DNA from: Vairimorpha necatrix
Lineage: Eukaryota
DNA: 64,000 nucleotides
NCBI GenBank assembly: GCA_036630325.1
Contig: CP142734.1
Coordinates: 558,001-622,000 of the forward strand
Direction: 5' to 3'
Shown in pieces: positions 28,402 to 58,182 of this stretch; the first letter of the stretch is position 1; the number at the start of each line of letters is the position of its first letter. The notes below the pieces were generated by a model. The model made no database searches, was not told where the DNA came from, and saw nothing but the letters and a program-made list of their open reading frames with translations. A program made the translations under genes and the position numbers.

Positions 28402-29257
28402 ATAAAATCTTTATTTCAAAAAAAACGGAGAAATGAACTGGCATTCAGAAAAGTTATAGGAGATTCGAGAATATTATTTTTTAAAAATAAAAAACATTTT
28501 AATTGATAAATATAATTTTAAGATGCCAGAGCTAAGATACTAATGGTTAAAATAAAATCCGAATGAATTATTAATTGACAGGCGAGTTGATTGATGCATT
28601 TCGAAATTTGACAGGAGGGCAAGAAATTTGAGATTATAATAAGCTAATACCCGTTATTTAAAAATATGCAATATTTTATCTTTTTAATGATGTTTTCTAT
28701 AAAAAGTATGGTTAAAGAACACGATAGGTTATAAATTTGGGGTCATGTCGGCTTTGGCAGAAAAATTTCGATATCGGGGTTTTTTGTATTTTGTCCTCTT
28801 TTTTCCAAAACGTCGAAAATAAATTTAAGGAAGAGACAAAAAAATTTAATGCAACAAAATACTAATTAAATCATATCCATAAAAATTTGATACTTTCTAA
28901 ACGTTCTGATTTATATTGTACTTATGATAGTAGGTGTCTTTGTTCAATTTTTAACGTTTAGTAAAATAGCTAATTTGATTACAGAGAAGAATGAACATGA
29001 AATATTTTAAAATAAGAATTCTACATATTTCGCAACTGCATATAAAACAGTCAAAATTTCGGTTACTTGTTAATTCTGTTTAAAAGAACTTAAACCTTTT
29101 TAGAACGTGTAATTATTTAATTTTAATTAAAATTGTACATTTTTATTAGTTTATAGTTTGGAAAAAAAAATTGTAGAATGTTGACATTAGACAAAATATG
29201 AGGTTAAACAGTATTCTTTAATTATTGCCCATCTTCATGAATTCGAAGATGTTTTTA

Positions 29258-30838
29258 CAGGGTTTTGCATTTTTTTAGTCCAACTTTTGCATTTTTAAAG
29301 TCCAACTTTTGCATTTTTTATAGTCCAACTTTTGCATTTTTTATAGTCCAACTTTTGCATTTTTATAGTCCAACTTTTGCATTTTTATAGTCCAACTTTT
29401 GCATTTTTATAGTCCAACTTTTGCATTTTTATAGTCCAACTTTTGCATTTTTATAGTCCAACTTTTGCATTTTTATAGTCCATTTTTTGAAAAAAAACCA
29501 AGATTTGATAAAAAATCAAAAATCAATAGAATTATGCAAAAAATATATACAAACTCATTTAATTAGATAAACTCGTTTTTCTGCCTTGCCATTTCTAACC
29601 ATCTTAACATATTAGTGTAGAATCCATTACACGAAAGGCTGAAATCATCGTTCAGCACTTGTTCCAAATCCGTTTCAACAGCATTATTTGAGTTCCTTAT
29701 AGCACAAAACCTTGATTTTATCATAGAAAAAAACTCTTTAATTGGATTAAGCTGTGGGGAATACGGAGGCAAAAAAACATAAGATATGCCTAATTCTCTT
29801 AGCTTTCCTAAAACTTCTCTTGAATGATGAAATTTAGCATTATCCATGATTAAAATCTTTTGAGGATTTCTTTGGAAAAATTCTACAAGATGTCCTTCAA
29901 TAAATTCGACAAATAGAGCAGAATTATATGCGCCCCTTTTCATTTCGTATGCTATAATATTCGATTTTGAAATTACGCAAAGACAACTTAAATTTTTGCC
30001 TCGATTTGCAGGGACTGTTTTAAATGCTTTTTTATTTTTATATGAAAACCCATAATGCCTTGTGGTATGAGCATTAAATCCAGTTTCATCCAAAAAAATC
30101 AAATTTTCTAGTGAATATCCTGATATTTCCATAGCATATTCTGCTCTTTTATCAATTTTGTCCTGCGAATTACGCTCTGCAGGAATTAGAGACAGTCTTT
30201 TTCTTGTAATATTTAGATATTTCAACTTTCTCGAAATAGTTGACAAAGACATTGAAACATTTGCTATTGTATAAAGTTCTTCTTTGATTTCACTTAGAGT
30301 CTTGTCATTACTACGTGCAATGACGTTTTTAAGCACAATGTCGATAGGCTTTAAAACTCTATGAGCTTAAACTTTAGAACGATTTGTTGTTATTGTAGAA
30401 ACAATGGATTCTTCCTCTAACATTTTCCTATGGATCCTCCAAATTGTTTTATAACTTAAATCTAATGTTGTAGCAATATCTTTTAGGGTCAAGTTTTCGT
30501 TTTTTATATGTCTTTCAATGAGCTTTAAGACATCAGGAGTGACCGAAGATCTCGCTTTTCTAGGCATTAGGGGGTTTTTTTTTTCAAAAAAAAGGCCATT
30601 GAAATGCAAAAGTTGGACTATAAAAATGCAAAAGTTGGACTATAAAAATGCAAAAGTTGGACTATAAAAATGCAAAAGTTGGACTATAAAAATGCAAAAG
30701 TTGGACTATAAAAATGCAAAAGTTGGACTATAAAAATGCAAAAGTTGGACTATAAAAATGCAAAAGTTGGACTATAAAAAATGCAAAAGTTGGACTATAA
30801 AAAATGCAAAAGTTGGACTAAAAAAATGCAAAACCCTG
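29258..30838 (-). mobile_element. Tc1/IS630-like (DD34E) DNA transposon with long repeat-built TIRs
   Basis: Termini cagggttttgc / gcaaaaccctg flanked by TA. TIRs are built from a 22-23 bp unit tagtccaacttttgcattttta (9 copies left, 10 right). Confidence 0.95.
29563..30567 (-). pseudogene. Tc1/IS630 transposase with one in-frame stop and a catalytic E-to-K change
   Basis: HTH ORF (MPRK.. from 30567) and DDE ORF are in the same frame, separated by TAA at 30367-30369. Motifs FLDETG, IMDNAKFH and PYSPQLNPIKE, with K at the position of the DD34E glutamate. Confidence 0.88.
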
Positions 30839-30847
30839 TAAATTTAA

Positions 30848-32926
30848 TGTTATATATTTAGATATTTTGACCCCTCATTACGATAAATAAATACATGGGG
30901 GCCCAACCTAATGATGAGTTGACAAGAGTTGACTGTGGACAAGAGTTCAGAAATCATAGTGAGTTTGAGAGGATAATGTATGATTTAAGATTAGAGGAAA
31001 TGGAAGAGAGAAGTCTGCAGAAGAGGAAGTGAAGATTTGAAAAATTTTATTGTTTTGAATGTTCCGATTGAAGGAGGAGTCGAAGAAATAAGAAAAAAGT
31101 TGATTGAAGAGAAAGAAAGGAAGAAAATGGAAGTGAGAAGAGAAGTAGAGATAAGGAACATGATATTGATGATTACGGAAACAGTTAAGAAAGCTATGGA
31201 AGCGAAATGTGCAGAAAGAACTGGATTTAAGAGAAGGCTTTTTAGATGTTATGAGTGTGGCCGAACAGGACATATTTTTAGAAATTGCCAATATAATAGG
31301 TTTAATAAAAGTGATTCCAAGTATTTAGTTTCTAAAAGGTCAGCGATAGATCATGAAGAATGTTTAAGTGAGGATAATTATAAGAAGGGTAAAAAAGAGC
31401 AGGAATAGACGAGAAGCAGGGAGATTATAGATGAGAGAGTTGAATATATGGGATTAGATGGATTGAGACGGAAGTATTATGAGGTATTTTCGGACGAAGA
31501 GGAGGAAATTAAATATTTTAAGTTGGAAAAATGCCGAATTAAAACCGAAGAGGGAAAGGTCGTAAAGAAGAAAGGACAAATGGTTGAACAAGCGCTTATT
31601 GCGGACACAGTAGAACACATTAAGAGTTTAGAAAGAGGATAAATAATTAGAAGATCAGTGTCGGAATGGCGGAACCCAGTAAGGGCGCTTAGGAAGCCAA
31701 ATGGAAAGATAAGACTGGTAAGGAACTTAATGGCTTTAAATGATATAGTTGATAAGGATCCGTATGAATTGGCACCAATTAGAGGTGTAATCGAGGAAGG
31801 CAGAGATCAAGGTTTTTTACTGTGATAGATATTAAAGACAGTTTTTACCACATTGAGATTTGCGAAGAGGATAAACATAAAACAGCATTTGAATTCAATG
31901 GGAGAGTTTACGAGTGGAATAGTATGGTAATGGGGTTTAAGAACTCGCCCCAAATATTACAAAGAACAATGAATACGATTTTTGACGACCTGTTAGGAGA
32001 AGGAATAGAGGTGTATATGGATGATGTAGTAATTCACGCAAAAACGAAAAGAAAGCACGATGAGCTGCTAAAAGAAGTTTTAAAACGATTTAAGAAAAAT
32101 AACATGAAAATAAATATTAGCAGATACAATTCTGTAAAAAGGAAGTAAAGCTATTAGGGGCGACACTAAATGGAGAGGGTTCTCGGGCGTGCGAAATTAA
32201 AAAGAATGAAGCGAAAGAATACCCAGCGCCAGCAAATGTATCAGAATTAAAAAGATTTTTGGGATAAACTGGATGGTTTAGAAGTTTTATTAAAGATTAC
32301 GCTAAGTTGACATACCATTTAACAAATGCGCTTAAGGGAAATGGGAATAACTTCAAGTGGACGGAGGAAATGCAAAAAGAGTTTGAAAGTTTGAAAGAAT
32401 GTTTAAGAAATTTGAAAAGTCTAAAGATAGCTGATTATAGTAAAGGATTTTTGCTGCGAACAGATGCGAGCAACGTTGGCATGGGAGCCGTGTTATTGCA
32501 GAGAAACGGATTGAATGAGCGGGTTCCGGTACAGTGGGCTTCAAAAAAGTTTACTCCAACGGAAAGTAGATACTCGATATCAGAAAAAGGAATGTACGCA
32601 GTACTCTGGGGAATTAAAAAGTTTGAATACGAACTCAGAGGAAGAAAATTTAAGATTGAGACAGACCACAAGGCCTTGAGTAAAATTAGGAATAGGGCAA
32701 ATTTTAGTAATATTAGGATTAATAGGTGGATAGGGGAGATATAAAATTTGACTTTACTATAGAATACAGAAACCCGAAGATAATGGTTGTTGCAGATTCC
32801 TTGAGCCGCATATATACGGAAGAAGTTAGTAAGATGAAACAGATGGAAGATTGTGCAATTAAGCAACAGTAAGGTAAGTGGAAGAAACATGTAATCGTAG
32901 AGAATGGTTTGAATTATTGGAAATTT
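30848..32926 (+). mobile_element. Element H: 3'-truncated degenerate gypsy with a putative 48-bp 5' LTR (30848-30895) and no protease
   Basis: TG...CA block followed by PBS-like tgggggc. CCHC knuckle CYECGRTGHIFRNC, RT YMDD (31822-32148), RNase H TDAS (32307-32744). Cut at the Merlin boundary. Confidence 0.85.
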
Positions 32927-34135
32927 TGCGCTACTTCAATTCCTTGCCCCCCCTAAAAAAAACTATTTAGAAGAAATTTTATTTATTTCTACTTACAAAG
33001 TTCTAAAATTTTTATATAAGCACAACTATGATCATCATTATTAGAATGATTGATATTTCTTTTTTTCCAAGTAAATTCATTTAGAAATAAATTAATCCTA
33101 TGCCTTTTGAGCCCACTTCTCGATCTATATTCATTCTTCAAATGGGACCACAAATTTACTATATTATTTGTGTGGTCTCCTTCTGCATTTTTAAATCCAA
33201 GCGAATGATTTATTATGTAATGTTCACTCCCAAAATTTCTAGAGGCTGGAGGGTATGAAGGGTATCCATCAGTAATTACAATAGAGCCACGTTTTACTCT
33301 GCGTCTAAAAAGGTCTTCAATAGTACTAGATTGTCGATTAGGTAGCAATTCAAGAACAAATTCTCTACAATTACCTTCTACTATGCCGCCTATAATCCAT
33401 TGAATTCCAGGCATGGAATCCAAAGTTGAAGAAGGATCAGATACAATTACACCGTTGCATATGGAGGTTTCATCAAATTGTACACAAACAGAAGTTCCTC
33501 CAATTTGGTAGCTATCATCGCTTTTAGAAGCAATGATTTCCATCACTGTATCCTTGATTTTAATATATGAATTTTTTACATATTTTGCAAAGAACTATTG
33601 CTTGGTAAGTAGTATAATTAAATACCCAGTAATAGAAAGCTCTAAGGATTTTGTGAAATAGAACGCTTATTCCTTTAAACATCGTACCATTTTTAAGTGA
33701 GCTCTTCGAACTACACTTTTTATTAACACAACGATAAGCTTTACCGTCAATGTAGCCGGAACATCCACTATTGTTCATAAGAACAGTTCGTTCTGATGTC
33801 TTACAATGTCTGCAAGCAATCGATCTTTTTAGAAGACCATTATCTAAAAAAAAATTGCTGCAACATAGTTCCTAAAGCACGCATCTTCGCAGATATTTAG
33901 CTCTCGAATAGCTTCCTGCAGATTCCTAATTAAGGGGTAAAAAAATTAAAATTTTTTAACCCCTTAATGAGGAATCTGAAGGAGGCATAAAAAAATTAAA
34001 TCGACAAAAAATACCTTAACTTCATTTTCTTGCCCCCCTCAAAAAAAAAATGTTTAGATTTGAAAAAAAACACGATTTTGTATCTTTTCATTGACGTTTT
34101 TTTTAGGGGGGGGGGTAAGAAAATGAAGTAGCGCC
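32927..34135 (-). mobile_element. Merlin transposon with disrupted transposase and no TSD
   Basis: TIRs (g)gcgctacttca.tt..tt.ccccccc. ORF 32989-33546 has QFDET, VITDGYPSY, INHS and HTNNI..LW. N-terminal cysteine-rich fragment at 33560-33778. Confidence 0.92.
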
Positions 34136-34672
34136 CATAAAAGTATCTAATGGGTACGGCAAAGTTGGAGCCCATGGCTGGTGCACTCTAGAGAGGGATC
34201 CTAGAGCTAGCCAAGAGACTAGACGAAGTATGACAATAGAAGGCCTCGTGGACCCTATTCTTTAAGATTCTGTAACACGGTGGCCGAACTAGTGCAAGAG
34301 TGGTGGTCAACGCAGCCCAATAAAAATGCTAGGCTGGTGATGTGGTCGTGTAAGGAGCCGTGTGGGCAATACAGATGATTGTAGGGACCTTTGAGTCAGT
34401 ACGATGATGCCTCTCCTCGGGTTATAGATAACCATGCTCGTTAAGTATATCCGCTGTGAGGTCACTCTTGACGCGATTTGAGGTATAAATGGAAAGTGTT
34501 CTCCTGGAGCCAAAGTCCAATGGATACGGCGAAGCTCGCTGCACCGGCAAGTTGTATAGGGGAGTTTTAGTGAGAAAGAATCTCACAGTACCAATTGGAT
34601 GAGGATCACACCCAAATCCAACTGGTCCCTATGTAAGGTTTCTCCCTAGCTCTTACTTGCAAGGAAAAAAAA
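34136..34672 (+). repeat. Dispersed poly(A)-ended repeat, copy 3 (5' end cut at the Merlin TIR)
   Basis: Homology to copy 1 starts at cataaaagtatc, immediately after the TIR. Confidence 0.82.
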
Positions 34673-35426: not shown

Positions 35427-36904
35427 TGGCGTGTTTACCGAGAAGCTTGCCTATGGCGAGGAAGCATTCAATGATGCTACGGTCTAGATTGCCGCGAAAA
35501 CCGGAGTTTAGATAACTTGAAGGAAAAGATTGTTCATTGTTATAAAAAGAATTTTGTTTATCTGTTTTGTAAAAGGAAGAGTGTTTGTTATTGTTCGGAT
35601 GTTGTACCATGTTGTTCATGGAATTTCTCTTTTATATTACATAGTAACCAATAGAAAGAAATAAGGATCCTAGTTTGCTACGCGCCCGGAGGGAAACCTA
35701 GTTTGTTATACGCCCGGAATAAAAAATTACACATTTTTAAGAGAAAAACTTTTCTAGCATGATAATAAAAAAGCAGCATTGTAAAAAAACAGGCTTGTTT
35801 TAGAATTAATTAATTTTATTGCTTATGGCTAGTAAAGATAGAATTCTGATGAACACAGTCTGCTTTACTCATCTCTGAACATCAGTTCAGCTAGAAGACC
35901 AGGAAGTTGTGCTTTTTTAACACCATACATTTTCTTAATCACAATCTTCATCTAATTCCAGAATGACTCTATGTTCTGGGTATGGGCTCCAGTTATCGGA
36001 TCAACGAAATTTGTCTTGTGGTTTACAACCAGATGACGGAACCCGAGACATCTTTCGATATTCACATATGATCCCCAGCCATCAGAGTGAATGATTGTGC
36101 CAGGTCTACATATCCTTGCAATGATCGGAAGCAAAACAGCAGCTGTTCGATTGGGAACAATTCCCATATAGCACTTCGCAGGAGAGAAAGAGGTGTCTGC
36201 GATCCCCAAAACCCACACATCACTTGATGGTGCTCTACCATGATGATGTTTGATCTTGTGGACGAACTGGCTTTCGTCGATCTGGAAAACAATACCTGGA
36301 CCTCCCAATCTCATAGAATCAGCCTCGAAGTATCCTTTAAGAATAGTTCTCAGCTTGTTTATAATTGCCACGATGCTGTTTCTTCTAAATCCATGCTCGA
36401 AAATGATCTCTTTAATTTGTTTTCCCTTGCTCCAAAGCATAATCATAGCGTAGATCTCGGACAATGGCAATTTAAATCCCTCAAAAAATGATCCAGTTCT
36501 AATGCTCTTTGTGCTTCTGTAGAGCCTGCACACTTTATTATCACATGTCCAGCATATAAGGTCCGGGCCTTTCTTTGATCTCTCAACCATGCCAGATGAA
36601 CACTCAGAACAGGACATACTGGTCAAAAGAAGGTTTTGTTCTCGCAGAACAGAAATCATCTCTCTTGGTGGCATTCTGCGGATTTGTACGTAACTTTCAA
36701 ACTGCGACACACCCGTTCTCACAAGGGTAAATTTTTAAAAACCTAGTTTGTTATACGCCCGGATAGGGCGTATAACAAACTAGATCCGAAATAAGATTTG
36801 GCTGGCCAATAATAGTCGACCATAACTGATCGTTCCGAAGAAAAATAAGCGTTTTAGTATTAATTGGTCTTTATAAATCATGTGATATGGTCCATTATAC
36901 CACA
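35427..36904 (-). mobile_element. Solo LTR of the B/F-type lineage, interrupted by a Merlin
   Basis: Minus-strand termini tgtggtataa...acgcca as in element F. Perfect TSD gtatg (35422-35426, 36905-36909). Encodes RSIIECFLA like the F LTR. Confidence 0.88.
35665..36787 (-). mobile_element. Merlin transposon with a 256-aa transposase ORF (35952-36722) truncated near the C-terminus
   Basis: TIRs ggatc(c)tagtttg; 7-8 bp TSD gaaataa(g). Zinc ribbon CSEC..C..C, QIDES, IHSDGW, VNH and HTQNIESFWN. Confidence 0.94.
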
Positions 36905-37722: not shown

Positions 37723-40066
37723 ACCCCGTAGAGAAATAAATAATTAAATACTTAGACATTAAAAAAAAATTTATTTAATGTCGTAGCCGATCAAATACTG
37801 ACCAATCATATTCGTACAAATGGACAGATTTGATTGGCTACAAAAAGTATTTAAAAACATTTCCAAAAGGAGGTGGAAAATAAGAATAAAGTTATTGACA
37901 TGGCGACAACGATAAACAATGTCAGCTATTACACAGGAGAGACCGAGGAGGACATTGACGCCTGGTTAAGAGACATCATGCTGCTAGGTAAAGTATCCAG
38001 CTGGGCCGAAAAGCAGTACAAAATAGCCATCATTAGTAAACTTATAGGAAAGGGTTTATCTTGGGCTATCCAAACATTAGGAGGGAAAACAGAATCAATG
38101 AAATGAAAGAGATAATTACTGGTTTGAAGAAGAGATTTAGCTCATCCAGGAATAATGACATAACTTTAACCAGATTCTTAGCATTAACAGTCCCAGAGAC
38201 TAGAGAAGATTATTCACAGATGTTGCAGGAAGCAACGTGATATTTGAGCAGGCGCTTATCAACCTTGATGCGTTATGCCAAATGATAATCAATAAATCGC
38301 CTATAGAGATCAAAGCTCTATTATATCAGACCGCCACTATAGTTTAGACTTGGCAGGAATTCATACAAAAGGCCGAAGAAATACCTTGGATTCCATATTC
38401 GGATAAGATGCAAGCTAGGACTGGGATCCACAGCAACACGGGCAAAGGGCCTTACTTTACAAATAGTCACGAGAGAAGACGCAAAGAAAACAGAACTTAC
38501 GAAAAATCACCGAGATATAACAATAAACATTGCACACTTCATGGAGAATGCAATCACTACTCAAGGGATTGCAAAGTGCTAACCGATATCATCGCTATGG
38601 AGAGAAACAATCTAAAAAGAAAAGGTATTAACGCGCTAGAGGATTATAAAGCGAAGAAGAAACGACTATAAATAAAGAAAATGAATTTTACTTGCACCGT
38701 TTAAAAAATAATTCTAATCCGTTTTTTGTTCAAAGCCGTATGTTTAATAAAAATATAAAAGCTTTATTGGATACTGGTGCCGATGTTTCTGCTATAGATT
38801 ACAATGAAATCCCACTGGAAGAACGGGATAAGATCATAAAATATAACGGGGTAGTAAGAGGCATAGGTAAAGAAATTTTAAAAGCAGAAGGATACTTAAA
38901 AGACTGTACAATCGAAATTCCCGGCAAACGCGTGAACTTCTCCCATAATAATTAGAGACAATAAGTCGTTATAATAGAAGCAAACGTAATATGTAGAACT
39001 TAAAACTAATTCTAGACATTTTAAACGCTCCAAATCGTAGAATAAATCAAAAATCTAATTTATCGGAACACTCAGAAGAAAATAGAGTCTTAAAAAGTTT
39101 GAAGACGTATTTAAATCCGAAATTGGAGACTATAATCTCTTCACTGCGAGAAAACATCGAATACTGACAAACAGTACTAAGATCATTTGTCAAAGAAATG
39201 GAAGAATCCCAATAGCACAAGAGGAAGCTGTCAACGACGAAATAAGCAAACTATTAAAGCTTGGCATACTAAATGTTGTATAACCACATGTTTCTAGAGT
39301 GACCAATCAATAAGGAAACGTCAAGCAGTTTCAAAACACGCCGATATATAACAAAGGCTAATGGTCCATTATGAAACATTCAAAGGTGGTTGGTGGACCA
39401 CAACTATAAATAGCAAAATTATGACGTAGACACGCATCCATGAACAGAAAATCAAACAGACATTTTTTGCCTAACAATAAACAAACAAAAACACCTAACA
39501 ATAAAACAATTAAAAATACTAAAACTAATTCTATAAGCGTGCTGGAACATTTTTACCAGCACGGATACGTCAGATTGAATTCAATAGACAAAGAAGTATC
39601 CACAAGAACGAAAAATATTGACAAAAATAAAAACCCCACAATCACTGACCTTTGAAGTAAATATAGAAGGATTATCAAATACATTAAAACAGCATATACC
39701 CACCATAGACGATGTCACGGGCGTTGACATGTGCAGCTGGCTAAAACAATTTGAAGAACTAAAACAAAATAACAAATGGACAAAAAACATAACAACACTT
39801 ATGCTCAAATAGCTATTAAAGGATGCAAGAATACCTAGTGAAGAAAATACAAAGGAATGGAAAGATCTAAAAGGATTTTTATTAAAACTTGTTTGATTAC
39901 CAACAGAGGAGAGATTGTATCTCAGGAGAATAGAAAAAACCTATCAAATCAATTTTAAAATTATTAAGGAATATTATACATCAATTAAGAAAAACCTCGA
40001 TATCTACAAAATCATAGCCAATCTAACAGAGCAAGAATATCAACGGAAGTTTGATTCGGTATTTTA

Positions 40067-43000
40067 TGTAGGGTTTAGAACCCTTAATAAATAAATGGTT
40101 AACATGGCGAACATAAGGATGAACAGGGAAACAAGAGAGTCCCGTAGTCAAGAGGCTAGAACATTAGAGAAAGAGGCAATTAGGATAGATAAGAGACTAA
40201 AGTTAATATTGAAAGTTGAGAAAGTTGAGTGGAAAGATGTTATGGATTTGGCATCTGCGATTTTGCAGGATTATATTTTTGAAAATTTTTGTGACGGAAG
40301 GAGCAGTTGGGAGGAAATTTATAAAGGCTTACAAAAAGGAGCAGAATTTGAGAGAGAGTCAGAAGAAAGACAAGAAATGATTAAAGAGATTATGGATAAA
40401 GTGTTGAAAGAGTTTAGGGAAGAAAGAAAAGAAAATCTTAGGATGTATAGGAAAAGAAGAGAAATCAGAGAAACTACAAAATGTTTTATATGTAAGAAAG
40501 AAGGGCATTACGCTAGAGAATGTCATGAAAGTGTAGCTGGTAGGGAAAAATATAAAATTAAAAAGGAACAAGTTTTACAGAAAGAACCAATTATCAACAA
40601 TGAAGGGAAAAGATGTAAAACAGTAAATAAGTTAGAAAATTTAATTGAAAAGTATCCGGAAGTATTTAAAGAATCAGAAGAAAAGATAAAATATCTCACA
40701 GGAGAGAAGTGTCCAATAAATACTAAGCAAGGTGAAAAGGTTGTGAAAAGAGGGCAGAATGTGCCATACTACCTTAGGGTGAAATTTGAGGAGTACTTGA
40801 ATAAGTTGGAAAATAGAGGGGTTATAAGACGTTCCAAAAGTGAGTGGAGGAGTCCAATAAGAGCACTTGAAAAACCAAATGGGGACGTAAGATTGGTAAG
40901 CAATTTGATGGCGTTAAACGATTTGGTTGACAAGGACCCGTACTCATTACCGTTAATTAAGGATATTATGAGAGCCACACAGGGGTCAAAAGTATTTACG
41001 GCAATCGACTTAAAAGAAGGGTTTTATCATATTGAGATTGAGGAGCACCATAAGCACAAAACAGCATTTGAAGTGAATGGTCGAGTATACGAATGGAATA
41101 GTATGGTTATGGGGTTTAAGAATTCGCCCCATATAATGCAGAGAGTAATGAACAGAGTTTTAGATGAATTCAGAGGTAAAGGCGTGGAAGTATATATGGA
41201 TGATATAGTTATTCATGGTAAAGACGTAAGAGTGCATGACGAGTTACTAGAGAGGGTAATTAAAAAGTTTAAAGAGTGTGGGTTGAGAATAAACCAAACA
41301 AAGATACAATACAAAAAAGATGAGGTGATGTTGCTGGGAGTAACAATTAATGGGGAGGTCATGGGACCGAATGAGATTAAAAAGCAGGAGACATTGGAAT
41401 ATAGAAAACCTGAGAATGTTAGAGAGTTAAGAAGATTTTTAGGACTAACTGGTTGGTTTAGAGACTTTATTCCCAACTATGCGTATAGAACAGTAAGGCT
41501 TACTGAGGCTTTAAAGAAAGATGTTAAGTGGAATTGGACGGAGGATATGGAAAGAGCTTTTGAGGATATGAAGCAAGGCTTGAGAGATATGAAAAAGTTG
41601 AAGATTCCGGACGGAAAAAAGCTATTTAGAGTAAGAACTGATGCGTGTGATACGGGGATCGGAGCAATTCTATTACAAGAAAATAAAGAGGGTGAGTGGA
41701 TTCCGATACAATGGGCATCGAAAATGTTGACTCCTACCGAGCGAAGATATACGATAAGTGAGAAGGAGATGTTGGCGGTGTTTTTTGGAATAAAGAAGTT
41801 TGAAAGTGATTTGAGAGGAAGGAAATTTCATTTGATGACGGATCATAAAGCATTAGCAGAGATCAGAAATAAGCCATACTTCAATAATAACAGAATAAAC
41901 AGATGGGTAGAACAGATACAAGAGTTTGACTTTACAATAGAGTATGTGAAAGGGGAGTTGATGACAGATGCAGATGCGTTAAGCAGGCAGTATGATCAGG
42001 TAGAAGTTTCGGATGAACAAAAAGAAAAGGACAACAAGAGAAAAGAAGTGATCGAAAAACAAATTTTGGGAAAAAAGCAGAAACATATTAAAGAAAAGGA
42101 CGGTAAACAGTATTGGGAATTTTCCACAGGTGAGGTGAAAGAGATATTGAGCCTAGATAGTAGAGAACATGAAATAACAAGAGTACATGAGGAGTTAAAC
42201 CATAGAGGTGTCAAAGGCACTAATTATAACATTAAACAAAGATGGTATTGGCCTGGTATGAAAGATCATATTAATAAGGTAATTAAGAATTGTGAAATAT
42301 GTGGGATTAACAATAGGAAAAACACAGGAGGATGTGATTTCGTAGTAACTAGAAAGAAATTGGAGAAAGTGGCGTTGGATTTAATGGACATAGGTGGAGA
42401 GAATAGGTATGTGTTACTGGGTATTGATTACTTTACTAGAAGGTTGTGGGTTCGAATTTGAGATGTAAAGAGAGTAGTGAAGTTATAGAGGTATTACAAA
42501 AGTGGATAAGGGAAGATGGATTTCCAGAGGAATATGTGACAGACAACGGAAAAGAGTTTGTAAGTAATAGATTTAAAGAATGGTGTAGTATTAATGATAT
42601 TAAACATAGGAAAGTGGGCTTAGAAGCTCATAGGAGTAATGGTAGAATCGAGAGATGCATCAGAACTATAAGAGAGACATTGATAAAGCAAAATGATGGG
42701 AATATTTCTGAAAAGATAGAAAGAGCAATCAAAGGATATAATAATACACTACATACAGCAATAAAATGTACGCCGATGGAAGCGTGGAGAGATCAAACTG
42801 CTGAAGTTATAATTGAAAATGATGAAAATGGAAAATATGCTGATCGGTTCAAGAGAAGACACAGAGAGACATTTACAGTAGGCCAAGAGGTAAGAATCGC
42901 TAGGAGAGAAAATTTAGGTACACGTGCGAAAACAGACAAGGGAAGATTCACGGGTCGCGGAAGGATCGTAGCTATAAGTGAAAATGATTCATATATTGTG

Positions 43001-43140
43001 AGACTACTGGATGGTAAAATTGTTAAAAAAAGGCATTATGATTTGAAAGAGATAAGGAAGAGTTGTTTAGAAGATGGAGAGACTACCCGTCTGGAGGGGG
43101 GATGTAGGGTTTAGAACCCTTAATAAATAAATGGTTAACA
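40067..43140 (+). mobile_element. Element C: 3074-bp gypsy with identical 38-bp LTRs and no protease
   Basis: tgtagggtttagaacccttaataaataaatggttaaca at 40067-40104 and 43103-43140; TSD tttta; PBS-like tggcgaac; PPT ggagggggga. Confidence 0.96.
40095..43114 (+). CDS. Element C Gag-RT-RNaseH-integrase polyprotein with one frameshift at ~42450
   Basis: ORFs 40095-42461 and 42446-43114: CFICKKEGHYAREC, YMDD, TDAC, HHCC, DLMD / TDNG / GRIER. Confidence 0.93.
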
Positions 43141-45208
43141 TTTTATAACGGATTAGGTAGATATTCTTACGGAAAAATCGTCGAAATAGCCTTTGACACC
43201 TTTTATGGATGCTATGAGTTTTTAAACGACGTAGAGCAAAAACTGACAGCTAGATTTCAAGAACTAAAGAATAAGCCCAAGGAATCTCAAATACATACAA
43301 GATCATATGAAAACAAATTTTGCAGATTTCATAAATGGGGACTCCATTCGACAGAAGAATGCAAGAAGTACGATAAGGATTTTTACATTCAACAGAAAGA
43401 TAAAGAGCAACACTTAAATATAATAAAAGAACCTCAAACAGAATTGTCAAAAATTGCAATAACGAGAACTATTCAAGAATAAAAAATCGAATTCTTACTC
43501 GACACGGGAGCAAAGAAAAATTATATTAGTCAAGCCAAAGCAAAAAGCTTAAATTTACAACCCATTCAAGGCAAGGGAATAACAAATATATACGGGAACT
43601 GAAGTAAAGAAACAATCAGTCAAGTTGTAAATATCAAATTTAAAATTAGGAACATTAAACAAGATTTCAATGAGGAAGTATACATAGTAGAACCCCTCCC
43701 TGAAGACATAATACTGGGAGCAAGATTCATCATCAATAATGACATGATTTTAGACTTCAAGAACAAAGCCATAATACTTAACAACCAAATTACATCAGTG
43801 GCAAATAACCAGGAATTGGAACCAATAGAAATGGAAAGCATTTTATATTCTAGACTCTGTTGCATAAGAGAAATCGACCAGCTTGAGGAAACAACACTTA
43901 AAAACAATATAACAAGATACATAAAAGAAAACGGGTTTAACCAGATTAGTATCGACGAGAAAAGCAGAAAGTTAACATCATTTACAATTTTAGGACAGCA
44001 GTACAGATATACAAGAATACCGTTCGGTTTAAAGTCAGGCCCCGAGATTTTTCAAATGACGATAAACAAGAAATTATAAGGGGTAAGGAATTGTGCAGTT
44101 TATATTTACGACATAGTAGTTTACACAAATACCTTAGAGGAGCTTATACGCACAGTGAATGAGGTATTGAACGCACTAAGGGGATTTAACGTAAAAATCA
44201 ATTTTGAGAAAAGCACATTTTTAACGCAAAAACTAAAATTACTAGGCAACGTTATTGAAAACGGACAAATAAAAATTGACAACAAAAACATTGAAAAAAT
44301 ACTAAATTCAAATTCTGTACCAAAAAACAAAAGATATTCAGAAATTATTAGGAATTATAGCATGTATAGAAACTTTATACAAGATGTCAGAAGAAAACTA
44401 TCATGTATCACCAAATTATTATGAAAAGAAACAACTATAAATTGGGAACAAAAACATATCGAAGCATTAGAACAAATAAAATAAGAAATCGCAACTAAAG
44501 CGACACTAAAACTACAAGATTTTAAAAAAGCATTTCACATAGAGTTCGATGCATCAATGGAAGGAATGGGGACGGTTCTATTCCAGGACCATGGAGTAAT
44601 AAATTACTACAGTAAAAAATTTAACGAAACAGACAAAACTATTCAATCATGGAAAAAGAAATGTACGCGATCGTAAAAATCCTAGATTTTTATAGAAACA
44701 TCATGCTTGGTTTCCACGTAATTGTACATACCGACAGCCAGAATTGTATTTTTGAGAATAAACAGGTTTCGAAAAGGTTGGAGAGATGGAAGATGATTCT
44801 AAATGAATTCAACATTACTATTAAAAATCCCCGGAGACGAAAATAAGATCGCAGACAGCTTATCAAGATGCTCAGAATAATTCAAACAGAATGAACTACG
44901 GGCAACGAAAATCACCAGAGAGAACTGAAAAAAAAATAACATAATAAATAAGTACATGCAGGCATATCTACACTATATTATAACATAAAAGACTATTACA
45001 AGATACCCTATCTCTCAAGAATAATAAAAGAGACAATAAATAAGTGCGAAAAATGCATAAGATGCAAAAACAACAAAAAATCCGATAAAACAAAATCTAA
45101 TATACAGGCACGCAGTTCATTTCAAATCTTGTGTACAGATATTTTCGGCCCATTCGAGTTAACAGACTACGTACATAATGAGATACAAAACAAAGGATTT
45201 TTTCTAAC

Positions 45209-48200
45209 TGTTGAGTGAAATAATAATTATTTATAGCCCCTATTCTAGAATAAATGTTTATGGTGGAGAATATGAAAACAGAGATTAGTAGTGAAAATAT
45301 CTTGCAGGAGCTACAAAGAGCTTCTTTACTTTCCAGTTTTAATAAATTATCAAATGAGGAAAAAATTGATTATTTTATTCATAAAGCCAACATTGAGATA
45401 CTAGATTGGCATAGTAAGTTAATGAAGGAGAAACGGAAATGTTCCTTAACATTTGAAATGTGGAAAGAGTTGGCAGAAACGGAATTTGACTGCGGTACTG
45501 GATTGTACGAATTATATACTTTAAAACAAAAAGAAAACCAAAGTATTGTGGAATTTATCAAAGATGTAGAAAAGAAATGTCTAAAGGAAAATATCAGAAA
45601 TACGGATAAAAGGAAGATAATAAGAAATGGAATCCTATCAAGATATAAGGCTATAAAAATGGTATTAACGGGGCAATATGAAATTAATAAAGAATTCCTT
45701 GAAATAATTGATGAAATGGAAAAGGAAAATAACGATATAACAAAAATAAGACAACCTGCCTCCAATAACATCAACAAAAGATATTCATGTTATTTTTGCC
45801 ACAAGGATGGGCATATCGCTAAAGACTGTTTTGCGAAGAAGAAAATAACTGATGGTAAACAACTACAGTATAAAAGGATAAATGAGATCCACCAAGAAGG
45901 CGGAATGTTGGATGCAAACTTTATTAACAATAAAGAAGATTTAATATATGTTTATAATGAAAAAATTAATGTAACTTTTGACTCGGGTTCTTACTATAAT
46001 TTTATAAGTAAAAAGGCTGCTTCTGAACTAACTTTAAAAATTTATAGAAGTACAGAGGAAATATATTTTTTAACATGTTTAGAAGAAAGATTCGGGATTA
46101 CAGAATATGTGATATTAGATTTCTCTTATGGTGGTAAAAGTTATCGTTCTAAATTTTTTATATTCCCTAAGGTGGAAAAATTTAAAATACTTGTAGGAAA
46201 AAAGACATTACAAGAAATATTGAAAAGGGTGTCTAGCAATAGAATTTGTGAAATAAATACGATAAAAGGAGAAAAAATTGTTGAAAAGGTCTATACACTA
46301 CCAAAAAAGTTAGAAGAAGGAGTGGAAAAATCTATCAAAGAACTACTAAGGAAAAATTACATAAGAAAATCAAAATCAACGTGGTTGAATAATTTAAGAC
46401 CAGTAATTAAACCAGATGGTTCTATAAGAGTTACTACAAATTTAGTTTCGTTAAACAAATTGGTAGAGCTAGATAATTACTCCTTACCACACATTGATAA
46501 GCTTTTATACGGGCTTCGTGGAAAAAAATATTTTAGTAAATTGGATTTAAAAGATGCATTTTTTTGTATAGAATTAGCGGAAAAGGATAGATATAAGACC
46601 GCTTTTAGATTTAAGCACCTATTATATGAATGGAACGTTATGCCAATGGGGTTTAAAAATGCTCCGGCAATTTTTCAAAGATTTATAGATGATGTTTTAC
46701 AAGAAGAAATAGGGAAAAGTTGCTTCGTGTATGTGGATGACATACTGGTTTTTGGAGAAAACGAGGAAGAACATGATTTTAATTATGAGAAGATCATAAC
46801 AAAGCTTAAAAGCTATAACTTAGGTATTAATGAGGATAAAACAATATATAAGGTTAAAGAACTTACCTTTTTGGGACATTTAATAGCATATAACGAAATT
46901 AAGCCAAAAATTACACGGGACCAAGCAATTAACGATATGAAAAGACCAATCAATAAAAAATCACTGCAAGAATTTCTGGGACTTATTAATTATTATAGAA
47001 AATTTATTTCTAATTGTTCAAAAATCGGAGGATGTTTATATGATCTTACAAAAAATGATATTCAATTTAATTGGGGGAAGGAACAGGATGCTGCTTTTAA
47101 TACATTAAAGAAAATTGTATTGTCGAGCAGTGTGCTTAAACAGCCAGATTTTAGTAAACCTTACATATTAGAAACGGATGCATGTGACTCTGGTCTGGGA
47201 GCGATCTTGTCACAAGAAAATGAAGGGCATGTGTACCCAATCGCGTACGCTTCTAGAAGATTGGTTCCAGCGGAAAGAAATTACAGTATCAGCGAGAAAG
47301 AATGCTTGGGTGTCCTATGGGGAATGGAAAATTTTAGATATTTTTTATATGGAAATGAGTTTAAAGTAATAACTGATCACAAAGCTCTAGAGGTCCTAAA
47401 TAAAGGCGAAATAAAATCGTTACGTATACAAAGGTGGCTTGATAAATTGAGTGAGTATAATTACACGATCGAGTACAAAAGGGGGACAGATATTCCTCAC
47501 GTCGATTGTTTGTCAAGATCTTATCTTAATGAGTTAAATACGGATGAAATAAATATGATTGAATTTAGCGAAGAAGAAAAAAGGTCTATCATAAGGAATA
47601 AACATATAGAATTAGTTCACAGAGGATCAAAAGTTATTGAAAATGAATTAAGGAAAAAATATCATTGGAAAGATATGTCGCATATGGTAAAAACGGAAAT
47701 TAATAAATGTCTAAGATGTAAGATGTACAATCCACAAAGAGGAAAAAAATTTATATTTGTGAAAGCATACGAACCTGGCGAAAAGGTAGCTGCCGATATT
47801 ATAGGACCAATCAATGGAAGCTATATAATTACGGCGATCGACTATTTTACAAGGAAAGCATGGGCTAAAGTCATTACTACTAGAGAGAGTAATAAGCTAG
47901 TGAAATTTTTTGATGAAGTTTATAATGACATAAAGATTAAAATACTAATTCTTGATCAGTCAAAAGAAAATTTGAGTATTGAGGTAAAACAATGGGCAAC
48001 GAGAAATAATGTTCAAATTCATTATATTTCCCCTTTTCATCACCAATCAAACGGAAGAATAGAAAGATTTAATAGGACAATACAGGAAGGTATATATAAA
48101 GATAATAGTTTTGGAAATTTGAAGACAAAAACTAAGCGTGTACTAGATGTATACAATAATGTTAGACACTCCGCTCTTGGCATGTCGCCAGACGAAGCAT

Positions 48201-48542
48201 GTAATCCTAAGAGAGCTCAGGAGATTAAACTAAAACAATTCGAAGAAATCGTAAAATTCAACCAACGACAGAAGAAAAGAGGAGCTGAATTTATTTTTAA
48301 AGAGGGAGATAGAGTTATAATTAGAAGAGAAACCGATTTAACAAAGGGAAAACCTAGATTTGAATCGCAAGGTATAATTATTAATATTTTAGGAAATAAT
48401 TCTTATAACGTTAAGGTCCATAATAAAACTATAAAGCGACATGGCTCGCAACTTAAGCTAATAGTAGAGGATTATTTTGAATGAGGGGGATGTTGAGTGA
48501 AATAATAATTATTTATAGCCCCTATTCTAGAATAAATGTTTA
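45209..48542 (+). mobile_element. Element D: intact 3334-bp gypsy with identical 52-bp TG...TA LTRs
   Basis: LTRs 45209-45260 and 48491-48542; TSD ctaac; PBS tggtggagaa (tRNA-Ala-like 3' complement); G-rich PPT. Confidence 0.96.
45254..48484 (+). CDS. Element D Gag-PR-RT-RNaseH-IN polyprotein (1076 aa, uninterrupted)
   Basis: CYFCHKDGHIAKDC, FDSGS, YVDD, ETDAC, HHCC, ADIIGP / LDQ / GRIER. Confidence 0.97.
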   Translation: MFMVENMKTEISSENILQELQRASLLSSFNKLSNEEKIDYFIHKANIEILDWHSKLMKEKRKCSLTFEMWKELAETEFDCGTGLYELYTLKQKENQSIVEFIKDVEKKCLKENIRNTDKRKIIRNGILSRYKAIKMVLTGQYEINKEFLEIIDEMEKENNDITKIRQPASNNINKRYSCYFCHKDGHIAKDCFAKKKITDGKQLQYKRINEIHQEGGMLDANFINNKEDLIYVYNEKINVTFDSGSYYNFISKKAASELTLKIYRSTEEIYFLTCLEERFGITEYVILDFSYGGKSYRSKFFIFPKVEKFKILVGKKTLQEILKRVSSNRICEINTIKGEKIVEKVYTLPKKLEEGVEKSIKELLRKNYIRKSKSTWLNNLRPVIKPDGSIRVTTNLVSLNKLVELDNYSLPHIDKLLYGLRGKKYFSKLDLKDAFFCIELAEKDRYKTAFRFKHLLYEWNVMPMGFKNAPAIFQRFIDDVLQEEIGKSCFVYVDDILVFGENEEEHDFNYEKIITKLKSYNLGINEDKTIYKVKELTFLGHLIAYNEIKPKITRDQAINDMKRPINKKSLQEFLGLINYYRKFISNCSKIGGCLYDLTKNDIQFNWGKEQDAAFNTLKKIVLSSSVLKQPDFSKPYILETDACDSGLGAILSQENEGHVYPIAYASRRLVPAERNYSISEKECLGVLWGMENFRYFLYGNEFKVITDHKALEVLNKGEIKSLRIQRWLDKLSEYNYTIEYKRGTDIPHVDCLSRSYLNELNTDEINMIEFSEEEKRSIIRNKHIELVHRGSKVIENELRKKYHWKDMSHMVKTEINKCLRCKMYNPQRGKKFIFVKAYEPGEKVAADIIGPINGSYIITAIDYFTRKAWAKVITTRESNKLVKFFDEVYNDIKIKILILDQSKENLSIEVKQWATRNNVQIHYISPFHHQSNGRIERFNRTIQEGIYKDNSFGNLKTKTKRVLDVYNNVRHSALGMSPDEACNPKRAQEIKLKQFEEIVKFNQRQKKRGAEFIFKEGDRVIIRRETDLTKGKPRFESQGIIINILGNNSYNVKVHNKTIKRHGSQLKLIVEDYFE

Positions 48543-51500: not shown

Positions 51501-54500
51501 TAGAGATAAAAGAAAAGCTTAAGGTTGAAGAAAACGTTTTAATATATAGAGATTATCCGGGGGGTGGTAAATTGGAAGCTAAATGGATACCAGGCTACAT
51601 CATAATTCAAATTTTAAACGAAGATGCGTTTCTAGTAAAAAGAAAAAATACTTTGGGGGAACTGAGAGTCAATAAAAGTCATATTAAAAAGGATACGTCA
51701 AAGACTAATTAAGGGGGTGTCGTAGCCGATCAAAAAATGATTAATCATATTCGTACTGTTGAATATTTATAAATTTCTAATTTATGACCCCTAAGATATC
51801 TTTAATAAACATGGTGGAGAATATGAACAATAAAATAACAAAAAACAACATAACTCATGAGATAAAAAGAGCAGAGGCTCTTAGTAGATGGAAAAAAAGA
51901 CTGACGAAGACAAAATGGATGACTTTATCAGTAGGTTTGACGAAACCGTTTTAGACGGGCATCTAGAGAAATTTGGGAATAAAAGGAAAACAAGTTTTAG
52001 CTATGAAGATTGGAGAAGAGCAGCACTGGAGTATTTTTGTACGAAAATTTCTATAGTGGACCTGTGCTCCAAGAAACAAAAGGATAATGAGTCTGTTTCT
52101 GTATTTATAAAAGAAACGATTAAATTGTGTGAAGATTTAAATGTTGAAGAAAAGGATAGAAGGAAAATTTTAAAAAACGGCATCAACCCCCGATATAAAC
52201 TCATAAAAATGTTTTTATCCACTAAATATGAGACGGATGAGGAATTCTACGGAACTATTATAGAAATGAAGAAAGAAGCCGATTTGGCCTTTTCTTTCAA
52301 AAACTTAAGCTTAAAAGAAACTCCAAGAAAAACTTTAACCTGCTTCATATGTAAAAAGCCAGACATGTTTCTACAAATTGCTATTTTCGGAATAGAAACA
52401 AAGACACTGGTGCAAGTAAGCAGGTACATGAGGTAGTAGCCAATACTGAAGAGAAATTAGAAGAAAAGTCTGCATTTTACGAAAATTAAAATAACCACGT
52501 CTATGTTAAAAGTAATAAGGTGCCTGTTATTTTCTATATCGGTTCTAGTTATAATTTCATTTCACATTGTGCAGTTGGAGAATTAAAATTACAGATATTA
52601 AGGAGGAAAATGCCATTGAGCTTTTTTACGTGTTTAGATGAAAAGTTTCAAATAAGAGAGATAGTAGAGTTAGAATTTAAATATATGGACAAGATATATA
52701 AAACAAAACTCTTTATTTTGCCTAGGGTCGCCAAATTTAAAATATTATTCGGAAAACAGGAGCTGATAAAAATTTTTGCAAAACCAAAAAACAGAATATG
52801 TCAAATTAAAACTAAACCAGGCGAAAAGGTCGTAGAAAGGACGTATGGACTGCCACAAAAATTAACAGTGGGCATAGATGCTGAAATAGAAAAGTTATTA
52901 GAGAAAAAATATATTCGGAAATCCAGTCCTATGTGGTTAAACAATCTTAGACCAGTTAAGAAGCCAGATGGATCGGTTTGGGTGGCAACCAATTTGATTG
53001 CACTCAATAAGTTAGTAGATTTGTACAGATACTTGCTTCCGAGCATAGAAAGAATCTTACATAATTTAAAAGATCAAAAATATTTTTCTAAGTTGGATTT
53101 AAAAGATGGGGGTTTCAGATAGAATTAGCAGAAGATGACAGACACAAAACAGCTTTTAGACATAAGCATCTTTTATATGAATGGAATGTAATGCCAATGG
53201 GCTTTAAAAATTCGCCGGCCATATTTCAACGGGTTATGGATGATGTTTTACAAGATGATATTGGGAAAAGGTGTTTCATTTATGTTGACGATATTTTAGT
53301 TTTTGGAACAACTGAAGAAATCCATGACAACAATTTTAGGATTATAAAAGAACGATTAAAGAAGAATGCTTTACAATTAAATGAAGATAAAACTATTTAT
53401 AAAAAGAAATCAGTTGAATTTTTAGGACATACGATAGAATACAATAAAATTAAACCCAAAAGGGAACCTAGCCAAGGTATTGATGAAATCAACCCGCCAC
53501 ATGATATTAGATCATTGCAAGAATTTCTTGGTTTTATCAATTTTAACAGGAAATTTATTCCCGGGTGTTCAAGTATTGCAGGATGCTTGTATGATTTACT
53601 TAAAAAGAATAGAAAGTTCAGTTGGGGCGAACATGAAGATAAGCCTTTCAATAAGCTTAAAACCATCATAAAATCAAATATAGAATTATACCAACCTGAA
53701 TATACTAAACCTTTTATACTAGAAACAGACGCGTGCAATTCGGGAGTTGGTGCAATTCTCTCACAAAAACAAGGCGAAACAATTTATCCTATTTCGTATG
53801 CTTCAAGAAGACTTTTACCGGCTAAGATAAATTAATATTTTAGTGAAAAGGAATGCTTAGCAGTGTTATGGGGAATGGAAAATTTTAAATATTTCTTATA
53901 CGGGAATGTATTTGGAGTAATAACGGACCATAAAGCTTTGGAAGTGTTGAACAAAGAAAAAATAGGCTCTCAACGAATACAAAGATGGCTTGACAGACTT
54001 AGCCAATATAATTTCACAGTAAAATATAAAAGGGGTGTCGAGATGGCACATGTGGACTACATATCTCGTCTATACCAAAAGGAAGAGCAAGTCGTTAATG
54101 AAATTCAAGACTTAAATGATGACACAAAAAGGAAACTTATTAAAGATAAACACGAAAATTTAGTTCATCGTGGAGCAAAAATAGTAGCCAAAGAGCTTAA
54201 AAGGGAATATACGTGGGATATTATTGATAAATTAGTTAAAGAAGAGTTGAAAAAGTGTATAAGATGTAAAATGTATAATCCAAAAAGAGGAAAAGCCTTT
54301 TTGTTCGTTAAATCGTTTTATACAGGAGAAAAGGTCGCTATAGATATTATAGGACCAATAAATAAACAATATATAATAACAGGAATTGATTAATTAGTAG
54401 AAAGGGGTTTGGAAAAGTTATTACCACTAGAGATAGTCAGAAAATTGTAGATTTTATAAGGAAATTAACAAACAAATAACAATAAAAGAGTTGATAATGG

Positions 54501-54786
54501 ATTCATCAAAAGAGAATCAAAGTAGTAAAGTATAAACTGGGCCATAGAGAATAAAGTGAAGGTACATTATACAACACCCTTTCATCATCAGTCGAATGGA
54601 CGAGTAGAAAGGTTTAATAGAACTGTCCAGGAAGGAATTTACAAACAGGGGGGAGATCTAAATCTAAAATCAAAACTATTGGAAATGTTAGAGGCTTACA
54701 ATAATATCAGCCACTCAAAACTAGGAATGTCTCCAAATGAAGCTTGCAAAAAGTAAAATGAAACAAAAATAAAAGAGAAACAGTAC

Positions 54787-57700: not shown

Positions 57701-58182
57701 CTGATTTGATATTAAATATCTTGAGTATATAGTCTTGGATTGGCACGTCTGTACCTTCAACAGTTCTTTTAAATTCCGCGTGATGATGTTTATCTCCAGA
57801 TGTAACTGACTTTGTACCTTTATTGCCATTTGAGCTCAAAATGGCGTATTTACCTGGAATTGTGCCAGTGGCAAGAAAGCATTCAATAATGCTACGGTTA
57901 TGTGCACCGTGAATTCCCAAGGTAGGTGTAAATGTATTTGAATAGTGTTTATTGTTATTGGCGTCATGGGCCTGAGCTGAAGTGCGGCTGTTGTTGTTCT
58001 TAGGCATTCTCATTCTTTTTAAGTGATGAATTTCGTTATTTATATTTGTGTGTAACCAATTAGAAATTAGTGTTTCAGAACTGTCCACTAACAATTAGAG
58101 ATGCTTGACGTGTATCAAAGCACATTAGCGTTTCATCGTCTATTGGTCACCATAAACATGTGGTATGAGATATTATACCACA
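54787..58182 (-). mobile_element. Element F: 3396-bp RT-less LTR element with 341-bp LTRs
   Basis: LTRs 54787-55127 and 57842-58182 (one mismatch seen); TSD agtac; PPT-like gttggagttggcagta. Confidence 0.95.
55143..58013 (-). CDS. Element F Gag-PR-RNaseH-IN reading frame (no RT; one in-frame TAA at 57645-57647; 768-aa ORF 55143-57449)
   Basis: WCKYHHSKFHNTKDC knuckle, FVDTGA protease, then LQTDAS RNase H, HHCC and DIFGP / SDNG / GISER integrase. No YxDD. Confidence 0.88.

Follow-up and report, generated by a model that had tools for sequence, protein, structure and literature searches.

Ty3/gypsy retrotransposons with 38- to 64-bp long terminal repeats in Vairimorpha necatrix, including a lineage without a protease

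Short-repeat elements at the locus

The window analysed here is a 64-kb stretch (positions 558,001 to 622,000 of CP142734.1, our contig C9) of the Vairimorpha necatrix assembly GCA_036630325.1, which totals 15.0 Mb in 12 contigs; decayed and young transposons nested around one ABC transporter gene make up this window. Previously, four Ty3/gypsy retrotransposons (here C, D, E, and G) had been predicted from the window's sequence, with long terminal repeats (LTRs) of only 38, 52, 55/56, and 38 bp, perfect 5-bp target duplications, a primer-binding site, and a polypurine tract, and a fifth, H, with a putative 48-bp 5′ LTR. These features were all found in their places, the primer-site match being weak in G. 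The present study reveals, from the copies spread over the genome, that 38 to 64 bp is the native LTR length of at least 12 families, regenerated by reverse transcription that host tRNA-Arg, -Pro, or -Ala would prime. Furthermore, the C/G/H lineage lacks a protease and apparently one capsid lobe, an additional finding that was absent from the original prediction.

Element C occupies positions 40067-43140 on the forward strand (3074 bp), between the two copies of its target duplication (40062-40066 and 43141-43145). Its 5′ LTR (40067-40104) and 3′ LTR (43103-43140) are identical and hold a CCC run at LTR positions 15-17, AATAAA at 20 and 24, and an in-frame ATG at 29; a second ATG straddles the border, taking its first base from the LTR and the other two from the primer-binding site. 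The latter (40105-40117, also coding) abuts the LTR and is complementary to the 3′ end of host tRNA-Arg(TCG), over 9 nt in the window copy and 13 nt in the common form. A single polyprotein gene (40095-43114) starts inside the 5′ LTR and stops inside the 3′ LTR; it encodes 1006 aa in uninterrupted copies and is frameshifted here near 42440-42460, in the integrase. Its product begins with about 125 residues holding an apparently reduced Gag (40134-40475), predicted to form three short helices and one 55-residue helix, followed by a single CCHC zinc knuckle, or nucleocapsid (40482-40523). In the place expected for the protease lies a charged linker of about 36 residues (40524-40631) with no protease motif, profile match, or predicted fold. 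Reverse transcriptase (RT) and RNase H (40632-41927) and an integrase with H2C2 finger, core, and C-terminal barrel (42162-43040), preceded by a clade-specific helix-and-hairpin insert, complete the protein, and the polypurine tract (43093-43102) is coding as well.

Element D (45209-48542, forward strand, 3334 bp) has identical 52-bp LTRs (45209-45260 and 48491-48542) that end in TA, not CA, a perfect 5-bp duplication, and a 14-nt primer site for tRNA-Ala(AGC). Its uninterrupted 1076-aa open reading frame (ORF) runs through a two-lobe Gag, knuckle, protease motif, RT, RNase H, and integrase. E, a decayed D-lineage element on the same strand (51757-58491), has LTRs of 55 bp (51757-51811) and 56 bp (58436-58491) inside a perfect duplication. 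G, a decayed C-lineage element on the reverse strand (58886-62808), is about 67% identical to C in DNA over RT-RNase H; its 38-bp LTRs (62771-62808 and 58886-58923) differ at 3 of 38 positions and are bounded by a perfect duplication, and its primer site matches a tRNA over 6 nt only. As had been claimed, net lengths are conserved within lineages: 3334 bp in both D and E, once the element F nested in E is subtracted, and 3074 bp in C versus 3077 bp in G, after removal of an 838-bp inverted-repeat insertion (61382-62219) and its 8-bp duplication, with boundaries set by eye (a cruder scripted boundary sized the insertion at 824 bp). The decayed protease-less element H (30848-32932, forward strand) likewise showed the 48-bp 5′ LTR (30848-30895), with a degenerate tRNA-Pro-type primer site and no 3′ end, its sequence stopping where a Merlin transposon starts.

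Element F (54787-58182, reverse strand), with ordinary 341-bp LTRs, serves as a contrast. It has one 833-aa open frame of Gag, protease, RNase H, and integrase, with RT missing in frame; since close F copies carry about 870 more bases at this gap, an internal deletion in the window copy is indicated. Its LTRs differ at one base only. A structural scan of the window that demanded TG...CA LTR ends recovered only C and F, because D ends in TA, the LTRs of E differ by an indel, and the 3′ LTR of G lacks CA.

Native LTR length and host-like signals

From 38 scored candidates, a whole-genome search with C yielded 41 matches, and 37 of these span the full element at 99% identity or above. At the 30 best loci, from which the LTR and duplication details were taken, both LTRs measured 38 bp in every case, so the much longer LTRs that might have been hidden in other copies did not appear; the pair was identical at 26 loci and a perfect 5-bp duplication was present at 26, while one of the remaining four has its duplication at a third LTR. 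The C 38-mer itself has 81 genomic matches with up to two mismatches and its reversed control none; therefore, the repeat is not a product of chance. Among 34 copies, the mean distance was 14 substitutions with few shared sites, and, judged by this similarity, the C copies are a recent burst. Variable codons among the 11 same-length open copies number 22 synonymous and 38 non-synonymous, a set too small and too young to interpret.

Private changes shared by both LTRs of one copy were seen at 2 of 30 C loci (L011 and L026) and, in a 49-bp family, at 3 of 8 loci that had been chosen for being variant. The same private change at both ends means that both were copied from one template, which is LTR regeneration by reverse transcription. 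One C copy, L023 (contig C9, 441249-445295), carries three LTRs: a full element is followed by a repeat of internal positions 2100-3037 and a third LTR, a single target duplication encloses the whole, and brief microhomology to the end of the LTR is present where the parts meet, which would fit a misdirected strand transfer.

The same pattern extends to other families. A protein search with the RNase H-integrase part of C led to five sister families (52-57% identity), and the 20 loci picked from them all had 48- or 49-bp LTRs, 19 with perfect duplications; one 49-bp family was also seen to end in TA. D itself has 7 full-length copies and one split by insertion. Of 30 D-lineage loci examined, 20 gave an LTR pair, of 52, 56, 57, or 64 bp, with perfect duplications at 18, and 10 gave no call. 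The 52- and 56-bp families (45209-45260 and L040-L050) end in TA instead of CA in all copies seen and nonetheless have precise 5-bp duplications. Outside this genome, a metagenome scan returned 5 loci, of which 4 were examined; L165 alone had both ends, with a 39-bp pair, duplication, primer site, and purine tract. A scan of IMG/VR for the element matched nothing. Independent insertions with their own duplications, together with private changes in both LTRs, thus bear out the prediction that at least two lineages replicate with near-minimal LTRs. The predicted failure of default LTR finders holds too, as the minimum LTR length in LTRharvest is 100 bp by default (PMC2253517 Table 1).

The LTRs enclose an internal region of about 3.0 to 3.2 kb, in keeping with the at least 3 kb of Ty3/gypsy elements. 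Many copies have open frames of 1003-1037 aa, and the ORF begins inside one LTR and either reaches into the other or stops no more than about 30 nt short of it. Two internally deleted elements of 1661 bp (L170) and 1115 bp (L171), with identical 49-bp LTRs and perfect duplications, are possible non-autonomous derivatives, judging from their structure.

Solo LTRs are rare among these families. The 81 C matches resolve into 39 pairs and 3 unpaired ends still joined to internal sequence, leaving no solo LTR; in a 49-bp family, 54 matches pair by coordinates into 27 elements, again with no solo; and D has one true solo LTR among 17 matches. For the 341-bp F family, all three isolated LTRs checked were solos with duplications. 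LTRs this short may seldom recombine into solo LTRs, so that full-length copies would persist. This rarity suggests that short LTRs shield the element from deletion.

To compare LTR anatomy, one LTR was taken from each of 12 families. In 11 of them, a run of at least three C stops 19-24 nt short of the LTR end, and in the 64-bp family 31 nt short of it; LTR length therefore varies almost wholly upstream of this run. AATAAA or ATTAAA lies downstream of it in 10 families. The last LTR base and the first two primer-site bases form an in-frame ATG in all 12, a second in-frame ATG lies inside the LTR in 10 or 11, and in most families the CCC run stands 3-13 nt ahead of an in-frame ATG. Against 50 distinct host tRNA sequences (out of 63 loci, anticodons read from the sequences), 11 of the 12 families showed a primer-site match of 12-14 nt to a tRNA 3′ end, namely that of Arg(TCG) in C, Pro(AGG) in the families with 48-49-bp LTRs, and Ala(AGC) in the D lineage.

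Host genes place CCC similarly: it lies within 20 nt of the first ATG in 19 of 34 non-element ORFs and in none of the 34 in each of the next two 20-nt bins. Rapid amplification of cDNA ends in Encephalitozoon cuniculi has revealed 5′ untranslated regions shorter than 7 nt with a CCC-like motif just upstream, which is conserved in Nosema ceranae and others (PMC2803860). Together, these observations suggest that the U3 (unique 3′) part of the LTR runs from its start to CCC, which would leave at most about 20 nt for R (repeat) plus U5 (unique 5′). Reported R lengths are 10 bp in Sire, 11 bp in mouse mammary tumor virus (MMTV), and 21 bp in Rous sarcoma virus (RSV) (PMC3601003); a first strand jump on about 20 nt is thus feasible.

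Therefore, it is quite probable, going by these signals, that the LTR can be so short because the minimal signals of the host are used. U3 (17-36 nt) would consist of AT-rich sequence and close with the CCC promoter motif of microsporidia, and transcription would start a few bases past that motif. The R+U5 segment of about 20 nt or less would also house AATAAA, the start codon, and the integrase end, and the first strand jump would proceed via strong-stop DNA of about 20 nt or less. Since the 341-bp family shares the genome, host signals permit but do not impose short LTRs.

Two further ideas about the LTR were tried and rejected. A conserved LTR hairpin was not borne out, the folds of C and G being no better than shuffles (z 0.2, 0.3, and -0.3); the D 3′ end gave z -2.6, as one of four tested. 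Mapping U3 from LTR variants also failed: both LTRs of L026 are changed at position 19 and so is the 3′ LTR alone in L127, a pattern that would assign this base to U3, but 16 private changes occur in L127, and L126 gives the opposite pattern in an LTR of poor quality.

Missing protease and apparently reduced Gag

Sequence relationships indicate that the 38-49-bp lineage (C, G, H, and five more families) is without a protease and nested among protease-bearing relatives. RT-RNase H could be aligned in 114 sequences: 37 have the knuckle within 150 residues of RT and no DxG motif, 29 carry the motif, and 48 are truncated or unclassified. All 37 protease-less sequences (6 from this genome and 31 from the database) group together as a single clade (FastTree support 0.86, with midpoint rooting and no formal test); the clade enclosing it has support 1.0, and D and its protease-bearing relatives branch off earlier within that larger clade. 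The nearest named relatives of the C protein, which point to a host in the Nosema/Vairimorpha group of microsporidia, come from Nosema granulosis (66-67% identity across residues 1-420), Vairimorpha necatrix, and Enteropsectra breve. The D protein is 100% identical to a protein labelled V. necatrix, and a homology search with its first 330 residues returned one protein.

Pfam at E 10 found no protease in the C protein. A profile built from 30 protease segments detected no such domain in 35 of the 37 protease-less sequences and gave partial matches at E 6 and 11 in the other two, and the AlphaFold model of the C protein contains no beta-rich domain and no room for a protease between knuckle and RT. 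A hidden protease was considered from weak 'Peptidase_A17' Pfam matches and rejected, as these lie on RNase H (residues 483-590 and 496-615). The D lineage has a DSG/DTG motif, with Pfam protease matches in its relatives; the C/G/H lineage lacks the aspartic protease of Ty3/gypsy elements. Its CCHC knuckle and catalytic RT and RNase H aspartates are invariant in 25 of 25 sequences at 43-75% identity.

The Gag part of C also appears reduced. In a profile of the N-terminal part, the first approximately 70 residues matched lobe one of the D-type Gag weakly (hhalign E 4e-5, probability 69%), and no match to lobe two was obtained (E 0.16). The N-terminal model consists of three short helices and the 55-residue helix at a predicted local distance difference test score of 83; its Atlas neighbours are Retrotrans_gag and Ty3_capsid clusters (0.88-0.90), and the Arc C-lobe is among its structure matches (Z 5.2, rank 17). 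Foldseek on the N-terminal 155 residues gave no match at E 0.001, VIA-align on the same part gave generic helical bundles (best Z 6.0), and a BFVD search with the full model returned only RT-containing proteins. A representative-sequence search with the first 190 residues gave 69 matches, 9 of them at 1e-10, comprising unnamed fragments and knuckle matches. For D, the Gag sequence is moderately consistent with a canonical two-lobe capsid, as it reaches 0.93 to Retrotrans_gag clusters in the Atlas and its relative P0041 matches Pfam Retrotrans_gag at E 3.5e-4.

The protein P0045 (1022 aa), sister to the protease-less clade, has a two-lobe Gag by eye and no knuckle, protease, or integrase insert. 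Its domain content suggests a stepwise loss, protease first with both lobes kept, then the second lobe. In the Ty3 shell, it is through the second capsid lobe that dimer and trimer contacts are formed (PMC6525542); a canonical particle is therefore doubtful for the C lineage.

Readings of the protease-less lineage and its surroundings

The overall best explanation, to which we give a probability of roughly 0.65, is that these are recently mobile Ty3/gypsy elements stripped to about 3.1-3.3 kb, with short LTRs built on host signals, one lineage of which has no protease and may work uncut. The case for the last part comes from the domain borders. A [VI][NH]x[VIL] word stands at both the knuckle/protease and the RNase H/integrase borders in five of five protease-bearing relatives. 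At the RNase H/integrase border it occurs in none of 21 protease-less sequences (4 truncated ones omitted), nor in P0040 and P0045; most of the protease-less clade has a conserved helix-and-hairpin insert there. Loss of the putative cleavage words along with the protease favours an uncut polyprotein, and from these borders we consider the chance that the single C/G/H protein works uncut to be about even. Such a protein would supply its own RT, RNase H, and integrase, and one capsid lobe with the long helix would hold RNA and tRNA via the knuckle in a non-canonical particle.

The target sites bear on the integrase. By hand count, G or C comes first in 2 of 26 target duplications of C versus 6 of 7 of D, and makes up 12 of 130 duplication bases versus 15 of 35. 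This difference in preference, together with the invariant catalytic residues, implies that each lineage uses its own integrase. A bolder version is tentative and falls somewhat short of an even chance: the lineage would be an old, microsporidia-wide branch, fully autonomous without protease or canonical capsid, with an uncut protein of about 1,000 residues (one capsid lobe, a coiled coil, the knuckle, RT, RNase H, and integrase), a 3.1-kb RNA, 38-49-bp LTRs, and a strong-stop DNA of about 20 nt, reached by stepwise reduction.

Alternatively, the protease-less lineage could be a partial parasite that retains RT, RNase H, and integrase for use in cis and takes its capsid and protease from D- or F-type elements, co-assembling through the remaining lobe. 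The C lineage does appear to lack two parts that Ty3 uses (PMC7879559; PMC6525542), protease-bearing families that could help in trans share its genome, the lobe still present is the one alignable to D Gag, and a junction-like word is kept just before RT in C and, by eye, its two nearest relatives (3 of 25 protease-less sequences). However, the RNase H/integrase border has the structured insert in place of the word, C has 37 full-length copies against 7 for D, and the two differ in primer tRNA as well as in target preference. This alternative is possible but less likely.

A third possibility, that the lineage is autonomous and a host protease cuts its polyprotein in two low-complexity linkers, appears improbable. 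The linkers after the knuckle (residues 151-177) and after RNase H (626-638) are indeed predicted to be disordered, but neither holds a conserved cleavage-like word across 25 sequences, and linker length is variable, with 217-266 residues from knuckle to YxDD in well-formed sequences. A similarly low probability applies to the idea that the LTR is no promoter at all and serves only strand transfer and integration, with transcripts reading through from flanking AT-rich DNA. Read-through is common in microsporidia (PMC2803860) and C inserts at very AT-rich sites, yet in 11 of 12 families the CCC run sits at a fixed spacing from the LTR end, and in most it also has host-like spacing to an in-frame ATG. 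That longer LTRs were shortened by deletion or collapsed in assembly can practically be dismissed: many copies do have one-base indels that are potentially assembly errors, but the 38-bp repeat is directly abutted by primer site and purine tract inside and by own target duplications in dozens of distinct flanks outside, a 39-bp pair occurs in a separate metagenome and 45-50-bp LTRs in another species, and in X1, the single sequencing run holding the element (contigs only, possibly the assembly's own sample), depth is 60-116 on the element versus 0.2-13 in the flanks, with the step at the LTRs.

Apart from the possible help in trans, several points weigh against the overall explanation. An uninterrupted ORF is present in only 14 of 34 C copies. 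The blank Pfam result is by itself no proof, as Pfam misses the protease of D too, and the positive controls of the protease profile were its own seeds. The assignment of a single N-terminal capsid lobe to the C lineage is weak, and the [VI][NH]x[VIL] word is a presumed cleavage site, recognized from its position in the proteins. The transcription start and poly(A) sites are predictions only. The 18-25-nt window for the CCC shuffles was set after inspection of the data and the families are related, so that the P values (0.000-0.025) cannot be counted as independent. L165 has AATAAA ahead of its CCC run, which stops 16 nt short of the LTR end; the 64-bp family departs in its CCC distance of 31, and two families have no hexamer after CCC. 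The coexisting 341-bp LTRs of F also stand on this side.

Previously, Parisot et al. (2014) have described three microsporidia-specific Ty3/gypsy groups with one polyprotein (PMC4202319), and the Table S1 of that report lists LTRs of 45, 50, 73, and 90 bp for Anncaliia algerae, most others being 105-272 bp. The LTR length of our elements is thus less novel by itself, although the 38-bp LTR of C is shorter than any in that table. The A. algerae element retro L (50-bp LTR, ORF 32-3049, total 3127 bp; PMC4202319) encodes a single polyprotein as here and, read by eye from the start of its sequence, opens with CCC, has an ATG inside the LTR and a TGGCG primer site, and places its knuckle as C does; on this resemblance it very probably belongs to the C lineage. 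The 45-bp LTR in the same table is that of retro S. In PMC4202319, the LTR passages available (12 of 15) do not comment on length, and the word 'protease' does not occur in the main text. The main text of PMC7313128 contains none of the terms LTR, gypsy, or protease, and the accessible parts of PMC5012567 and PMC13174016 hold nothing on LTR length. In the literature covered, which included few subscription papers or supplements, neither LTRs below 60 bp as a feature nor a protease-less microsporidian clade was described. The Nbr elements of Nosema bombycis (Xu et al., 2006) are reportedly compact single-ORF Ty3/gypsy elements of the same host group.

The best solved-structure matches of the C protein are Ty3 Pol (E 1e-100 and 5e-83), its RT is closest to Ty3/gypsy, and the elements share the RT-RNase H-integrase order, priming by a host tRNA, the polypurine tract, the zinc knuckle, the 5-bp duplication, and TG at the LTR start. 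In contrast to Ty3, the primer site is 12-14 nt instead of 18, the LTRs are partly coding, and the C lineage has apparently one capsid lobe and no protease. By their domains, the elements work like and descend from Ty3/gypsy, the D lineage having the full set with non-canonical LTRs and the C lineage missing the protease. TRIM/SMART elements are non-autonomous miniature LTR elements without coding capacity, with short LTRs (about 85-250 bp), a primer site, and a purine tract, which default searches miss. The present elements, by contrast, code for RT, RNase H, and integrase and have even shorter LTRs. The canonical dimensions for Metaviridae, which are no strict criterion, are 200-1200 nt for U3 and 75-250 nt for U5 (PMC7879559), whereas here the whole LTR is 38-64 bp. 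Sire, MMTV, and RSV likewise have a short R (PMC3601003), but in these the complete LTR runs to hundreds of bases; in the present elements, U3 and U5 have almost vanished as well.

With these LTRs, a natural lower limit can be put on LTR content, and an element without protease and apparently half its capsid protein shows how little copying may need. If it is autonomous without protease or canonical capsid, the C lineage would be the minimal known LTR retroelement and would break two textbook requirements of Ortervirales. Three questions become testable in one small element: the minimum strong-stop DNA or R, the activity of RT and integrase while joined to Gag, and the need for a closed capsid. 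In addition, LTR finders with a 100-bp minimum miss roughly 37, 27, and 8 elements of 3.1-3.3 kb, plus uncounted others, in this 15-Mb genome; how many transposons microsporidia have, and how active these are, is probably underestimated.

The only clear host gene within the window is an intact 628-aa ABC transporter (26524-28410, reverse strand). Rfam and ARAGORN gave no matches on the window. A further LTR family, with repeats of about 122 bp, is present at 24575-24699, 37779-37900, and 51718-51756 plus 58492-58581, E being inserted inside one such LTR; C, D, and another element sit within decayed relatives, with five nesting layers in all. A Tc1/mariner element (29254-30842) has 22-bp-unit arrays in its inverted ends and a 267-aa DDE frame. 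Inverted-repeat or Merlin-type DNA transposons or their derivatives lie at 12201-12314 and 12867-12942, 10754-11765, 32933-34048, 35694-36763, and 61382-62219, one of them with 19-bp tandem units in its ends. A decayed non-LTR (LINE-like) RT remnant was recognized by eye at 15000-16800, Pfam being blank on its one long frame. Finally, a GC-richer repeat of 540-770 bp, with no long frame or Rfam match, is present in three copies that are 75-86% alike (17398-18155, 21808-22565, and 34136-34671).

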